A DNA stretch of 64,000 nucleotides, taken from the sequence record NC_028448.1. One strand, given 5' to 3'. Positions 1 to 42,058 of the stretch are shown here, in pieces. Position numbers and translations under genes: made by a program. Source of the stretch: Escherichia phage slur14. The notes beneath the pieces were generated by a model. The model saw nothing but the letters and a program-made list of their open reading frames with translations, made no database searches and had not been told where the DNA came from. The stretch's first letter is position 1. Each line of letters starts with the position of its first letter.

Positions 1-2691
1 ACTGCAAATGCCCATCTTTGGTTTGAAAATACAAATGGCTCAGAACGTGGCGTTTTATATTCAAAACCGCAGTCTGAAAATGAAGGCGTAATTACAATGC
101 GTGTTCGTCAAGGAACCGCTGCGGGAGCTCAAAATTCAGAATTTCATTTCATTTCTACTGATGGTGGTATCTTCCAGGCACGCAAATTAACTGCTTTAAC
201 TTCTATTAGTACACCAACTATTAGTGTTAATTTAATTAATCATGATTCTAAAGCCTTTGGACAATACGATTCACAATCATTGGTTCAGTATGTTTATCCT
301 GGAACTGGTGAAACAAACGGTGTAAACTATCTTCGTAAAGTTCGATCTAAGTCAGGCGGAACTATTTACCATGAAATTTGTACAGCTCAGACTGGACTGG
401 CAGATGAAATGTCATGGTGGACTGGTAATACACCGTTATTTAAACTATATGGTATTCGTAACGACGGTAGAATGATTATTCGCAATAGCTTGGCCATTGG
501 TACTGTGACGCAAGGGTTTCCGTCAAGCGATTATGGAAATGCTGGGGCACTAGGAAATATATTTCTTGCTTTAGGCGATAATGGAACTGGTCTAGTTTAT
601 AGAAAAACTGGTGTATTTGATTTCGTTGGTTCTGGTTTATCTTTGGCATCTATCACACCTGATAGTTTCCGTAGTACTCGTAAAGCAATATTTGGACGCT
701 CAGAAGACCAAGGTACAACATGGATTATGCCTGGAACGAACGCTGCATTTTTATCAGTTCAAACACAAGCTGATGAAAACACTGCTGGAGACGGTCAGAC
801 ACATATTGGCTATAACTCAGGCGGAAAAATGAACCACTATTTCCGTGGTAAAGGCAAAACTAATATTAATACTCAAGAAGGCATGGAAGTTAACCCGGGT
901 ATTTTGAAATTGGTAACTGGCTCTAATAACGTACAGTTTTATGCCGACGGAACAGTATCTTCAATACAAAGAATTAAATTTGATAACGGATTAGTTCTTA
1001 CTGGTGCTAGACCCGACGGTATTCAACTTGACGCTCCTACAACAACAGATGGCACTAAAACTATATTGTGGGCCGCCGGTACTCGCCCAGGTCAGAATAA
1101 AAGTTATCTATCTATCAAAGCATGGGGTAATGCCTTTAATGCATCTGGCAATCGTGCTCGTGAAACAGTTTTTCAAGTATCAGATGGACAAGGTTACCAT
1201 TTTTATTCTCAACGAGTTGCTCCCGGATCAGGTTCTACCGTCGGACCTATTCAATTTCGAGTTAATGGTGGTTTATTAACTTCTGGTGGTATTACATCAT
1301 CTGGTTCTATTGTTACTGAATCAAGTTTAGTTGCAAATAATGGATTATCTGTAAATGGTCAGGCTAAATTCGGTGGAACAGCAGATGCGTTGAGAATTTG
1401 GAATGCTGAATACGGCGCTATTTTCCGTCGTTCAGAAACTAGCTTTTATATTATTCCTACTCTTAAAGACGCTGGTAAAAGTGGTGGAATAAGTAATTTA
1501 CGCCCATTTACCATCAATCTTGCAAATGGCAGTGTTATGATTGGTAATCATACACAAGCTGGAAAAAATTTGCTTACTATTGATAATGTATCAAAATTCG
1601 TTCAGACTGATGTTAGACTTCGTGTTAACATGGATTCTGACGGTATTGTGCTCAACGCATCATCTCAAGCATCATCTAACTTTATTCAAGGACGTAAAGC
1701 AGATGTAACAAAATGGTATTTAGGTATTGGCGATGGTGGTAATGTTGTTCGTATGCATAATTACACTTACTCCCACGGCATTGCATTGAATGCTGATACA
1801 GTCGATATTACTAAGCCTCTTAAAATTAATAATATTCGAATTGGTACTGACGGTAACATCACAGGTGGTTCTGGTAATTTTGCTAACTTGAATACCACAA
1901 TAAATAACCTTAAGACGGATATTGTCTCAAGTTATCCTATTGGTGCTCCGATTCCTTGGCCTACTGATACACCTCCTGAAGGTTATGCCATAATGGAAGG
2001 TCAAACATTTGATGCTGACTTGTATCCTAAGTTAGCTGCGGTGTATCCTTCCGGCACTCTGCCTGATATGCGTGGTCAAACTATCAAGGGTAAACCATCC
2101 GGGCGTGCTGTATTGAGTACAGAAGCAGACGGTGTTAAGTCACATAGCCATAGTGCAAGTGCATCAAGCACAGATTTGGGTACTAAGACCACTTCTAGTT
2201 TTGATTACGGTAGCAAAACGACTTCAAGCTTTGATTATGGTACTAAGACCAGTAATACCACTGGTAACCATAGCCATACAGTGAGTGGTAATACTAGTTC
2301 CGCTGGTGCGCACCAACACTCACAAACCGGTCCAAGGGGTACTAATAATCAACCCACAGGAATATATCCTAATGGATCTACTCGAATTAGCGGAACCCTG
2401 GTTGTTGGTTTTGGCCTAAGCAACGGTGTTGTGCCTGGTACAAGCCAATATATTGCAAAGTCGTCAACAGAAGGTAACCATACCCATACTTGGTCTGGTA
2501 CTACTAGCTCTACGGGTAACCACGCGCATACTGTAGGTATCGGTGCCCATAGCCATTCGGTCGGTATTGGTGCTCATACCCACACGGTAGCTATTGGTTC
2601 GCACGGACATACTATCACTGTAAATAGTACAGGTAATACAGAAAACACGGTTAAAAACATTGCTTTTAACTATATCGTTCGTTTAGCATAA
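1..2691 (+). CDS. 37: Long tail fibre distal subunit gp37 (5'-partial; reading frame open from window start)
   Basis: Frame 1 is open from nt 1 to the stop at 2691. C-terminus carries His-rich GxHxH repeats and ends [11 protein letters not shown], as in the T4 gp37 needle domain. Followed by gp38 and holin t. Confidence 0.9.
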
Positions 2692-2720
2692 GGAGAGGGG
2701 CTTCGGCCCCTTTTTATAAT
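2691..2720 (+). promoter_or_regulatory. SD (AGGAG) + GGGGC-UUCG-GCCCC hairpin + U-tract between gene 37 stop and gene 38 AUG; split RBS and/or attenuator
   Basis: Perfect 5-bp stem with UUCG tetraloop at about 2697-2710, sitting between the only SD-like sequence and the gene 38 ATG at 2721. Confidence 0.6.
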
Positions 2721-3272
2721 ATGAAACTCTATCATTATTATTTTGACACTAAAGAATTTTACAAAGAAGAAAATTATAAACCATTAAAAGGCGTAGGATT
2801 TCCGGCTCATTCAACACCAAAAAAACCTTTAGACCCTAAAGAAGGTTACGCTGTTGTATTTGACGAACGTGAACAAGAATGGGTATATATTGAAGACCAT
2901 CGTGGAAAAACAGTATGGACTTATGATAAGCAAAAAATTGTTATTGACACTCCAGGTGCTCTTCAAAATGTTACTACAGAAGAACCTGGTGAATTTGACA
3001 TTTGGACCGACGACGGGTGGAAGGAAGATGAAGCATATAAACGCGTAGTTCAACGTGATAAGAAAATTCATGAACTCTATAAATTATTCAGTGTTTTAAG
3101 TTCTCTTATTGACGCAGAGGTTGCTAATAGAGAAGAAAAACGAAAATTTAAAGAGCTCAAAAAATTCTTTGCCCTTTTAGAAAAACATGAACATCTTGGC
3201 GGCGAATTCCCTAAATTCCCTGACCTTGAAAACAAATCTATTATCAAAGCGATTATAAATATCTTTAAGTAA
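2721..3272 (+). CDS. 38: Tail fibre assembly protein gp38 (T4-type chaperone, 183 aa)
   Basis: 183 aa, the same length as T4 gp38, and positioned between gene 37 and holin t. Confidence 0.85.
   Translation: MKLYHYYFDTKEFYKEENYKPLKGVGFPAHSTPKKPLDPKEGYAVVFDEREQEWVYIEDHRGKTVWTYDKQKIVIDTPGALQNVTTEEPGEFDIWTDDGWKEDEAYKRVVQRDKKIHELYKLFSVLSSLIDAEVANREEKRKFKELKKFFALLEKHEHLGGEFPKFPDLENKSIIKAIINIFK
3254..3261 (+). promoter_or_regulatory. Late promoter TATAAATA upstream of holin gene t
   Basis: Exact TATAAATA about 20 nt upstream of the t start, followed by an AAGGAGG RBS. Lies inside the 3' end of gene 38. Confidence 0.65.
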
Positions 3273-3281
3273 GGAGGTATT

Positions 3282-3941
3282 ATGGCAACACCAAAAGTGT
3301 CATTTTCGCCTAGTGATATTCTATTTGGGTTGCTAGATCGTATTTTCAAAGATAACGCTACTGGAAAGGTTTTAATGTCCCGAGTAGCGGTAATTATTCT
3401 TTTGTTCCTAATGGCACTAATATGGTACAAAGGAAGTATTTTGCTGGATTATTATGTAAGAGCTAAGTATGATACTTATACTGAAATAATCCAAAAAGAA
3501 CGAGCTTTACGTTTTGAATCTGCGGCTCTAGAACAACTGCAAATAGTTCATATCTCATCTGGTGCAGATTTTAGTGCTGTGTATTCTTTCAGACCTAAAA
3601 ACTTAAATTATTTTGTCGACCTTATAGCTTATGAAGGCAAACTACCTAGCACAATTTCTGAAAAGTCCCTTGGTGGATTCCCGGTGGATAAAACGGCTAA
3701 TGAATATATAATTCATTTAAGTGGCCGTCATTTCTCATCTAAATCAGAATTTGCATTTTTGCCTACAAAATCTAAGACTGCCGAACTTTCTTATATGTAT
3801 AGTTGTCCATACTTTAATTTGGATAACATCTATGCTGGAACTGTGACGATGTATTGGTATAAGGGGAATAATATACTTGAGGAAGATCGCTTAGCGGCTA
3901 TATGCAACCAAGCGGTCCGAATACTAGGAAGGGCTAAATAA
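3282..3941 (+). CDS. t: Holin t
   Basis: 219 aa. Near-identical to the T4 holin as I recall it (start SFSPSDILFG, end ILGRAK), with an N-terminal TM segment. Confidence 0.95.
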   Translation: MATPKVSFSPSDILFGLLDRIFKDNATGKVLMSRVAVIILLFLMALIWYKGSILLDYYVRAKYDTYTEIIQKERALRFESAALEQLQIVHISSGADFSAVYSFRPKNLNYFVDLIAYEGKLPSTISEKSLGGFPVDKTANEYIIHLSGRHFSSKSEFAFLPTKSKTAELSYMYSCPYFNLDNIYAGTVTMYWYKGNNILEEDRLAAICNQAVRILGRAK

Positions 3942-39361: not shown

Positions 39362-42058
39362 TCAGCCAAACAGGAAGTCTAACGAAGCTTTTTCTTCATA
39401 GTCCATACCAGCCGATTCACACATGCCCGCAAGCGGTTTAACAAACGATTTTTGGAACAAAGTTGAGTAGTCAATCCAAGATAGTACATCAGAACGAATT
39501 TCTTTTGGAAGTTCTGTGCCCGACGGCCAAGCAATGCACTTGTCACCAAATGGATTTCCTTCACGCAATGGAAGAACCATTACTTTATTTCCATCCAAAA
39601 TTGGAGCTACACCCAGACCACTAACAGCTCGACGATAAGTTAGCACACCGCGAATATGGAACGGACATTTAAATCCTGGCCAACCTTTATCATCATATTT
39701 TGCTATATCGTTCGCAGTTTTTACTTCAGCAATAACTTTATAGTCAAGTTGACGATATTCTTTCTCGAAGTTCTTGTAGTATTCTTGGACAGACTCTTCA
39801 CCTTCCTGAAGAATACGACGAATACTTTCTTCGAGAGCTTCTTGCACTGCTTTTGGTGTTGAACTCTGTTGAGTTTCCATACCCATGATTTTTAGATGCG
39901 GTTCAGCAAATCGTTTATCTTCCATATCATAAACGTTCAGAGCATAACGCTTTTTCGCTTTCCAAAATCCACCAACGCCCTTTGAACCAAGTGGAGGGCA
40001 AGAAATAGCTTCACGGTCCATATGCATCAGATGCTCGCGATTATTCATATAATCACATAACTCACGATATGCAACATCAATCATAGGTTCCATCTTTTTC
40101 TTACCAAACTGATTCATGAATTCAACTAAATCATTTTGTTCTTTAAAGCGGTCAAGACCTACTTTTTCAATTACTTTATCTACACAAACATATACCGAAT
40201 CAGTATCACCCGCGGCAATGAAATCTTCACCATCAGTTCCACATACTTTATTTAGATATTCATTAATTTTACGAGCAATCCACTGAATACCGACTTGACC
40301 GAAAATTGTGATAGCAGTAGCATTTCGCAAATCATAGTAACGGAAATGAATATTACCAAGAGCACCGTAAAGGCTGTTAATAAGAATTTTACGGTTCAGC
40401 TGATTTGTGTTAGCAAGTGTAGCCGCTTTTTCACATTCTTCAATCAAACTATTGAGAACAGATTCAGTATAATTCGATAGTTCATTTAAGAAATCATCAC
40501 TGAACTTAACATATCGTTCAACTTCAGGTTTAGTTGAACAAGACCCTGCGCCTTTCATAATAATCTTTTTAATAGCTTCGGCATTCATTTCTTCAGCGAA
40601 CATTTTCTTTTTCCAATCTTTACGCTGGAAAAATACTTTAGCGATTTCCTTTGGAATGATACCTTCTTGATGCTTATCGTACATCCATCCATTCGGAGAA
40701 CAAGAATATTCATCACTCGGTTTAGGAGCTGTTCCTGCGATATATTCATGAATTGGATGAACTTTAAACTGACCACGAATAGTCTCAGGACTAATGTTAA
40801 CCTGACGAATAATGCTCGGATACAGAGACGTCAAGTCAAAACTCATAATATATCGACGAGCAATTGGTTTAGGTTCAAATACAAATGCACCCGGAAAACT
40901 CTGTTTAACATGCGAACCTTGCTGAGGAATAACCTTGTGTTCACCTTTCAATGAGTTAAAAATAATAGCATCCCAAGTTTTAATAGGACTCATTACACCA
41001 GAAAAAGGCATTTTAGCATAATAAGACATACTTAAAACTAGATCGATAAACCCGCGAATTTTATCAATTGCTTGAACTGATTCTACGTCAATGATGTTAT
41101 AACTAATGTATCGTTGATGATTAGTCTCACGGAGTTTATTAATAGGACCGTCGTATGGTAATTTACCTTTTTTGGTTTCATGTTGAGCAACTGATTCCAA
41201 AGAGAATGACGGCAAATTAGTAAAAGCAAATTTCTTGTACAAATCTAAATAATCAAGAATAGATACGCCATCAATAGAATAAATTTCTTTGCTACCGTAC
41301 ATATTTTGAATTAGTTTAGATTTTACCCGACCGATTGGAGAGAAGCGTTTCATACTACGTTCACCGAGAACCATTTTAACGCGATTCATGATATACGGAA
41401 CGTCAAATCCCTCAATATTCCAACCAGTAAAAATAGCAGGTCGTTTCTGTTCCCAAAGATTGATATATTCCATGAGCATATCACGCTCATTATCGAATGG
41501 CATATAAATTACTCGGTCAAGAATTTCTTGAGGAACTTCATCACCACCTTCACAGTCAAGCTTAGCAGCTAACTTTGCATCCCATTTTGATACTGAACCG
41601 TACATTGAATTCAACAAATCAAAGACGTAAAAACGATCGTCAATTGAATCATAATGAGTGATAGCATCAATTTCATATTCAGCTTTCATTGGGTCAGGAA
41701 ATTTATCACCAGTAACCTCAATGTCACAGTTAGCTACACGAACAAATTTTCGGTCATAAACAATTTCTGAACCATATGTATCACTGATATAAGCGAGTTT
41801 AAAATCGTTCATACCGAGAGCTTCGAGACCGATGTCTTCCATTCGTTTCATCCAATCTCGAGCATCTTTCATTGATGGAAATTTTTGAGGAGCGCAGTTT
41901 TTACCATAGATGTCTTTGTACTTTGACTCTTCCTTACAATGCCTAAACATAGTCGGAAGATATTCTACTTCACGAGTACGTTCCTTTCCGTTTTCATCAA
42001 TATAACGTTCAACGATGTTATTTCCGACTGTTTCAATAGAGATATAAAATTCTTTCAT
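39362..42058 (-). CDS. 43: DNA polymerase gp43
   Basis: 898 aa; family B polymerase motifs (DxxSLYPS, YGDTDS) and N-terminal exonuclease domain. Confidence 0.97.
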   Translation of the reverse strand: MKEFYISIETVGNNIVERYIDENGKERTREVEYLPTMFRHCKEESKYKDIYGKNCAPQKFPSMKDARDWMKRMEDIGLEALGMNDFKLAYISDTYGSEIVYDRKFVRVANCDIEVTGDKFPDPMKAEYEIDAITHYDSIDDRFYVFDLLNSMYGSVSKWDAKLAAKLDCEGGDEVPQEILDRVIYMPFDNERDMLMEYINLWEQKRPAIFTGWNIEGFDVPYIMNRVKMVLGERSMKRFSPIGRVKSKLIQNMYGSKEIYSIDGVSILDYLDLYKKFAFTNLPSFSLESVAQHETKKGKLPYDGPINKLRETNHQRYISYNIIDVESVQAIDKIRGFIDLVLSMSYYAKMPFSGVMSPIKTWDAIIFNSLKGEHKVIPQQGSHVKQSFPGAFVFEPKPIARRYIMSFDLTSLYPSIIRQVNISPETIRGQFKVHPIHEYIAGTAPKPSDEYSCSPNGWMYDKHQEGIIPKEIAKVFFQRKDWKKKMFAEEMNAEAIKKIIMKGAGSCSTKPEVERYVKFSDDFLNELSNYTESVLNSLIEECEKAATLANTNQLNRKILINSLYGALGNIHFRYYDLRNATAITIFGQVGIQWIARKINEYLNKVCGTDGEDFIAAGDTDSVYVCVDKVIEKVGLDRFKEQNDLVEFMNQFGKKKMEPMIDVAYRELCDYMNNREHLMHMDREAISCPPLGSKGVGGFWKAKKRYALNVYDMEDKRFAEPHLKIMGMETQQSSTPKAVQEALEESIRRILQEGEESVQEYYKNFEKEYRQLDYKVIAEVKTANDIAKYDDKGWPGFKCPFHIRGVLTYRRAVSGLGVAPILDGNKVMVLPLREGNPFGDKCIAWPSGTELPKEIRSDVLSWIDYSTLFQKSFVKPLAGMCESAGMDYEEKASLDFLFG

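Follow-up and report, generated by a model that had tools for sequence, protein, structure and literature searches.

The 64,000-nucleotide (nt) stretch of Escherichia phage slur14 analysed here (NC_028448.1; hereafter the window) begins within the long tail fibre gene 37 and continues into gene 38. The junction of the two genes carries a translation initiation region in which the Shine-Dalgarno sequence (SD) and the start codon of gene 38 stand on opposite sides of a C(UUCG)G hairpin. Our data indicate that this site is the orthologue of the split initiation region of gene 38 of phage T4, a system that is already known, and we put the probability of this reading at roughly 0.75. The finding leaves current understanding unchanged. 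It would be a neat case from nature in which the ribosome takes up an SD and a start codon with a folded hairpin in between, and starts of this kind are missed or mis-scored by gene finders and by predictors of ribosome-binding sites (RBS) that assume linear spacing. The junction is built of the following parts:

1..2691, plus strand: gene 37 (distal subunit of the long tail fibre), 3' part, its frame open from window position 1, with 896 codons before the stop TAA at 2689-2691
2689..2695, plus strand: Shine-Dalgarno sequence UAAGGAG, core AGGAG at 2691-2695, overlapping the gene 37 stop (by sequence reading)
2696..2711, plus strand: C(UUCG)G hairpin A-GGGGC/UUCG/GCCCC-U (by folding, covariation and identity with T4)
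2711..2720, plus strand: U-rich spacer UUUUUAUAAU without SD-like motif, U5 being 2711-2715
2721..3272, plus strand: gene 38, T4-type tail fibre assembly chaperone of 183 amino acids, ATG at 2721-2723 (Pfam Caudo_TAP)

The order of elements in the RNA is UAAGGAG-A-GGGGC-UUCG-GCCCC-UUUUUAUAAU-AUG. A sequence-only reading of the window had named AGGAG at 2691..2695 as the sole SD-like element, about 25 nt from the ATG, and its coordinates turned out to be exact: 25 nt lie between the last G of GGAG and the A of the gene 38 AUG, and the 10 nt immediately before the ATG (UUUUUAUAAU) contain neither an SD-like nor a purine-rich motif. UAAGGAG itself is complementary to the 3' end of 16S RNA over 7 nt (duplex of -7.8 to -9.0 kcal/mol). 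Canonical SD spacing in the window phage and related phages is 4–6 nt; the downstream gene t, for example, has a canonical SD, UAAGGAGG, 4 nt from its AUG. The hairpin that the same reading had placed between SD and ATG is there base for base at 2697-2710, followed by U5, with a core stem of 2697-2701 paired to 2706-2710, the loop UUCG at 2702-2705 and A2696:U2711 as a sixth pair. The effective distance that it had estimated, about 11 nt, holds for the 5-base-pair (bp) core, and the distance shortens to 9 nt with the A:U pair and to 7 nt when a further G.U is counted as the seventh.

The same reading had pointed to T4 gene 38 as having a structured split RBS of this kind, and correctly so. According to a 2010 review (PMC3014915), the SD-AUG spacing of 22 nt in T4 gene 38 mRNA is cut to 5 nt by the intervening structure, mutations that destabilise the structure lower initiation (citing Nivinskas et al. 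1999), and T4 genes 38 and 25 both have suboptimal, extended SD-AUG spacing that is made functional by RNA structure in between. The T4 37/38 junction, UAAGGAGAGGGGCUUCGGCCCCUUCUAAAUAUG, has an SD and an AGGGGC-UUCG-GCCCCU hairpin identical to those of the window. The two sites stand between orthologous genes 37 and 38, within the common gene order 37-38-t, share the same stop-overlapping UAAGGAG and have no SD between hairpin and AUG; the gp38 proteins are 66% identical in alignment and 67.6% identical by tblastn. By our own count the T4 spacing is 23 nt linear, 5 nt effective with a 7-bp stem and 9 nt with the 5-bp core. The differences lie in the spacer, which is 8 nt long in T4 (UUCUAAAU) versus 10 nt and U-richer in the window, and in the U5 run, which, unlike in T4, is predicted to pair with the SD and resembles a terminator tail. 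The gene 25 site of T4, at the 26-25 junction (Malys and Nivinskas 2009, via PMC3014915), is similar in that a stem cuts the spacing from 27 to 11 nt, and its layout, present only in close T-even relatives and absent from distant T4-like phages (PMC3014915), parallels that of 37/38; it differs in belonging to another gene, in its unrelated sequence and in lying outside the window. On this evidence the split-RBS interpretation of the earlier reading is supported.

Folding of the junction RNA, a check that the same reading had proposed, gave -9.6 kcal/mol for the 5-bp core hairpin, -11.9 kcal/mol for the 6-bp form and -15.9 kcal/mol for an extended 10-bp stem (GGAGAGGGGC with GCCCCUUUUU; z = -2.96, with none of 200 shuffles equally stable). 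In the minimum free energy and centroid structures alike, U5 pairs with GGAGA (2692-2696) via G.U and A-U and buries most of the SD in the window phage, a feature that the sequence-only reading had overlooked. The U5 run may serve either in this back-pairing or as a terminator tail. The cost of freeing the SD and the start region was obtained by constrained folding over -32 to +27. Freeing UAAGGAG alone costs 4.35 kcal/mol in the window versus 2.85 kcal/mol in T4; freeing the SD and -3 to +13 with the 6-bp hairpin kept costs 7.1 versus 6.11 kcal/mol; and linearising everything from the SD to +13 costs 19.1 versus 18.10 kcal/mol. Keeping the hairpin folded saves about 12 kcal/mol compared with linearising it in the window phage, and the hairpin-folded complex is the only geometry that places SD and AUG within mutual reach.

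By analogy with T4 we infer that in the window phage, too, the structure enhances initiation and the 30S subunit tolerates the hairpin. The sole SD, 25 nt from the AUG, would be too far away for a linear site. A C(UUCG)G hairpin that remains folded within the 30S initiation complex, its feet side by side, would leave only about 7–11 nt of single strand between SD and AUG (for stems of 7, 6 or 5 pairs), and the SD:anti-SD duplex and the P-site codon could then be engaged together. The hairpin itself is a member of a G+C-rich UUCG class placed just after stop codons. Its U5 run may pair weakly with the SD and be displaced by the 30S, and it might also bring about partial intrinsic termination, leaving less gene 38 than gene 37 message; this termination and the SD masking in the window phage we infer only.

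Comparison with relatives supports the assignment to the T4 site. The window matches Escherichia phage slur03 (Mosigvirus, Tevenvirinae) at 100% identity over the 901 nt tested, and its gene 37, whose product matches Pfam Collar, gp37_trimer and Phage_fiber, is 100% identical to slur03 gene 37. The order SD-hairpin-AUG is kept in Tequatrovirus (T4, PhiZZ30, Ge15, JK45), Mosigvirus (slur03, G2469, ST0, mobillu, moha, ZQ3), Gaprivervirus (SP18, TH54, VR7) and Dhakavirus (C6), as well as in metagenome loci, and UAAGGAG is invariant in all the junctions read from these four genera. Matches to at least 80% of the 60-nt junction occur in about 207 phage records. Scans of IMG/VR and of metagenomes for gp38 relatives yielded 2–4 loci each, all near sequences already collected. 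A G+C-rich tetraloop hairpin follows the gene 37 stop in 24 of the 24 phage and metagenome junctions read. Among relatives the distances span a narrow range: AGGAG and the core stem are 1–2 nt apart, the stem and the AUG 8–10 nt. Directly below its loop-closing pair the stem mostly has G:C, replaced by A:U in SP18, G2469 and ST0 and by C:G in CkP1 and Melville; covariation scores 0.329, slid controls score no more than 0.124, and 0 of 500 shuffles get as far, in a small sample of 12–14 distinct sequences in which most stem pairs are invariant. The stem is maintained by compensatory change. Its loop varies as well, being UUCU in ST0 and in one further locus (L001) and UUAG in C6. Among the examined gene 38 records that carry RBS annotation (Ge15), none has an RBS annotated for gene 38. 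The 1990 record of phage TuIa (X55190) reads GGGC-TTCA-GCCCC at the junction, with one G fewer than other T-even sequences and a changed loop; this is possibly a gel compression error in the G+C-rich hairpin, and we gave it no weight.

The hairpin also belongs to a class that is enriched in the window. UUCG hairpins with Watson-Crick stems of at least 5 bp number 14 in the 64 kb, versus 0.75 +/- 0.87 expected from Markov-1 random sequences (the window has 34.5% G+C), and those with stems of at least 4 bp number 15 versus 2.8 +/- 1.7. Twelve have G+C-rich stems, and 10 of them start no more than 4 nt from the stop codon of the upstream long open reading frame (ORF) or overlap it. C(UUCG)G hairpins were first noticed as a class in T4 mRNA (Tuerk et al. 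1988, as recounted in PMC4371310), and the T4 intercistronic examples resemble the 37/38 hairpin in having UUCG closed by C:G, a G+C-rich stem, an intercistronic position and enrichment. Besides the 37/38 copy there are eleven other G+C-rich C(UUCG)G hairpins in the window, all on the minus strand between early genes, 9 of which abut (within 4 nt) or overlap the upstream stop:

52653, 50285, 49015, 44302, 42134, 35264, 27613, 16811, 11530, 11301 and 8636, minus strand: 5' ends of the eleven other hairpins

In most of these eleven, an SD-like motif and the next start lie downstream of the hairpin. The 37/38 copy is the only member with a gene start within 20 nt and no SD-like motif in between; the other members with so close a start have one. 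A scan of all ATG ORFs of at least 60 amino acids in the window for the SD-hairpin-AUG order gave gene 38 as the only strong case, and the sole other match, a weak internal ATG at 41950 on the minus strand, was dismissed.

The same hairpin is found with the SD on its other side. In the more distant T4-type modules of the Citrobacter phages CkP1 (Karamvirus) and Moon (Moonvirus), a hairpin follows the gene 37 stop, and the SD (GGAG or GAGG) lies downstream of it, 5 nt from the same AUG; the gp38 N-terminus MK[IL]YH[YF]Y is common to the window phage, CkP1 and Moon. Phages with the adhesin-type gp38 show a similar order. T2, whose gp38 is of this unrelated type, reads UAA-aa-GAGGGC-UUCG-GCCCUC-UAAGGAuuuuua-AUG with the SD downstream of the hairpin, Klebsiella phage kv_tblp2 reads GGGGC-UUCG-GCCCC-aucuuu-AAGGAG-auauc-AUG, and Salmonella phage Melville reads GGGCC-UUCU-GGCCC-u-GGAGG-uuauu-AUG. 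As far as the compared junctions go, a G+C-rich tetraloop hairpin directly after gene 37 is a positional constant of the subfamily, and the SD on the 5' side, fused to the stop, is a derived state of the T-even T4-type module. Since the hairpin is present where the SD lies downstream, it is older than the split layout.

It should be noted that several points weigh against taking the site simply as a copy of the T4 system. The hairpin is conserved also in CkP1, Moon, T2, kv_tblp2 and Melville, where bridging is impossible, and its conservation therefore cannot be credited to a bridging role alone. For the window phage, folding predicts an SD that is largely paired with the U-run, and the effective spacing exceeds that of T4 by 2 nt, so the efficiency of initiation may differ between the two phages. 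The T4 evidence comes to us via one review (PMC3014915). Finally, reinitiation by ribosomes that finish at the gene 37 UAA, 29 nt upstream, could contribute.

The strongest of the other explanations is that the hairpin serves mainly as transcriptional or RNA punctuation after gene 37, as a partial Rho-independent terminator or attenuator or as protection of the 3' end, with the split SD being secondary. We consider this tenable, though at somewhat less than even odds, and it is compatible with the T4-type initiation region. In every phage read, also where gp38 is of the adhesin type or the SD lies downstream, a hairpin comes after the gene 37 stop, and the position of most G+C-rich UUCG hairpins of the window at upstream stops agrees with such a role. 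In the window, the core stem runs into UUUUUAUA, where 6 of 8 nt are U. This is the textbook form of an intrinsic terminator (G+C-rich stem, loop of 4 nt, five U immediately behind it) and the most terminator-like version of the hairpin; in G2469 the same 14-nt hairpin is annotated by the depositor as a putative terminator. TransTerm predicts a terminator after gene 37 in Aeh1 (PMC1524935, Additional file 6), and the TransTerm table of that paper lists none between genes 37 and 38 for RB69. Unlike Rho-independent terminators, however, the window hairpin has a short stem (5–6 bp), stands 10 nt upstream of a required promoterless gene and has a U-run that relatives do not keep: of the 8 nt that come directly after the stem, 6 are U in the window, 5 in the Gapriverviruses, 4 in T4 and 2–3 in CkP1, Moon, T2 and Melville, with CkP1 and Moon at 2. 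Canonical intrinsic termination therefore cannot be the shared function of the hairpin.

There are further arguments on both sides of termination at this site. A terminator scan of the window did not list it, probably because the G-T extension of the stem swallowed the T-run. A ribosome halting at the UAA, which lies 5 nt upstream, would sit on the hairpin's 5' arm. There is no exact late-promoter motif TATAAATA between genes 37 and 38, and transcription of gene 38 for this reason presumably passes through the hairpin. Because fibre assembly requires gene 38 and the gene lacks its own promoter, termination would be only partial, attenuation at most. The product of gene 37 is structural and T4-type gp38 is an assembly chaperone, so a lower level of gene 38 message would make sense. 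That readthrough from gene 37 is measurably attenuated in the window phage, in line with the secondary idea of the sequence-only reading, is a tentative proposal, to which we give a little less credence than to its opposite.

Another possibility is that the extended stem acts mainly as a repressor that sequesters the SD and keeps gp38, needed in small amounts, low. We regard this as unlikely. The GGAGA:U5 pairing is present in both the MFE (minimum free energy) and centroid structures and stabilises the hairpin well beyond its core, the predicted unpaired probability of the SD is about 0–0.3 in the window phage and G2469 versus 0.4–0.9 in T4, and UAAGGAG is, as given above, costlier to free than in T4. 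But the extra pairs are G.U and A-U, and the 4.35 kcal/mol needed to open them is less than the gain from the SD:anti-SD duplex. The lower stem is also lineage-specific and shows no covariation, with an A.C mismatch in its place in T4-type sequences, and no alternative transcript start or internal promoter that would relieve the pairing was found. In SD-sequestering repressor hairpins of the kind at T4 gene e or I-TevI, the SD would be expected to lie in a helix that is stable and conserved and that opens on an alternative transcript; the window site does not fit this type. From the folding predictions we read the lower-stem pairing as a lineage-specific modulation, not a designed repressor.

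It is also conceivable that gene 38 is translated mainly by termination-reinitiation, whereby the SD holds ribosomes coming from the UAA (2689-2691) for a restart 29 nt downstream and the hairpin has no positive role; we judge this improbable. The stop codon is indeed part of UAAGGAG, and this overlap is invariant in the T-even module. Coupling alone, however, would not predict that destabilising the T4 structure lowers initiation (PMC3014915), and gp37 and gp38 are not needed in equal amounts. A locus that bears on this question is that of Salmonella phage Lv5cm (MZ150757; ~296-400 of our locus L019), in which a 77-nt tandem duplication comprises the hairpin and codons 1 to 18 of gene 38. In the first copy, SD and hairpin are followed by a mini-ORF whose stop, a TAG, falls within the foot of the second hairpin, and full-length gene 38 stands behind this second, AGGAG-less hairpin, directly after the stop of the 18-codon mini-ORF. 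While this arrangement speaks for reinitiation, Lv5cm is a single record; the duplication may be a test of reinitiation set up by nature or may have arisen in assembly. The idea that an SD-like pentamer, a hairpin and an ATG are juxtaposed by chance and without function has only the shortness of the motifs in its favour and is refuted, practically beyond doubt, by the conservation of the layout across four genera and the compensatory changes in the stem, with the excess of UUCG hairpins in the window and the published T4 mutational evidence (via PMC3014915) pointing the same way.

Some other signals at the junction were considered as well. A RegB/S1 site (single-stranded GGAGRAYARAA, 11 nt) was rejected: GGAGAGGGGCU, which is structured, departs from this consensus at positions 6, 7, 8, 10 and 11. 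RegB reportedly cuts late intergenic GGAG motifs poorly (PMC1702504). The canonical SD context of CkP1 (L008), GGAGAAAAUAU, resembles the RegB consensus, unlike the structured, G/C-rich 2692-2702 of the window; that the split layout confers resistance to RegB is speculation. On the minus strand at the 37/38 site there is no credible ORF or signal, the reverse hairpin having a CGAA loop and a poor U-tail. A search of 2000-3500 against Rfam at a permissive E-value returned only chance-level matches to unrelated families, and no family for the hairpin.

Downstream of the junction lie two further features:

3254..3261, plus strand: late-promoter motif TATAAATA upstream of gene t, the only exact copy nearby
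3282..3941, plus strand: gene t (holin), Pfam Phage_holin_T, E = 4e-92

Only two exact copies of TATAAATA occur in the 64 kb, and none of 100 shuffles has so few (mean 10.3). One of the two is this copy, which serves gene t and lies within the 3'-terminal part of gene 38, 20 nt ahead of the gene t ATG. For T4, temporal classes of RNA are given as late for gene 36, middle for gene 37 and early for genes 38 and t, with gp38 protein late (PMC9697503, Supplementary Table S2); these tables hold temporal classes only, with no quantities, and do not state strandedness. If the data are strand-specific, the classes would imply an untranslated early gene 38 RNA; antisense readthrough from neighbouring early genes could explain them as well.

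A broader evolutionary scenario can be drawn from the comparison, though as a whole we think it rather unlikely. An ancient hairpin after gene 37 of Tevenvirinae would have been co-opted as a bridge when the SD of the T-even T4-type 37/38 module moved from its 3' to its 5' side and became fused to the stop codon. The U5 of Mosigvirus would then have made it a three-in-one element of 20 nt (partial terminator, weak SD mask and SD-AUG bridge) that jointly sets the gp37:gp38 ratio, and an independent recurrence at the nrdB-denA junction would suggest a reusable module for tuning expression. The small natural series of junctions, in which the same hairpin has its SD on one side or the other and a tail of 2 to 5 U, lends itself to relating spacing, SD masking and termination to chaperone-to-fibre ratios.

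The nrdB-denA junction was observed in Klebsiella phage PKO111 (KR269720; 252-284 of our locus L033), where it reads TAAGGAAAGGGGCTTCGGCCCCTCTTTATTATG. Laid out as UAAGGAAAGGGGC-UUCG-GCCCCUCUUUAUU-AUG, it has a stop codon overlapping an SD-like UAAGGA, a UUCG hairpin, a U-rich spacer free of SD and the start of denA. Judged by its layout, this looks like a second, independent split SD-hairpin-AUG site. It differs from the window 37/38 site in its gene pair and in its genus, and the observation is from one locus; the element is about 89% identical to the 37/38 element and is found in about 160 Klebsiella phage records.

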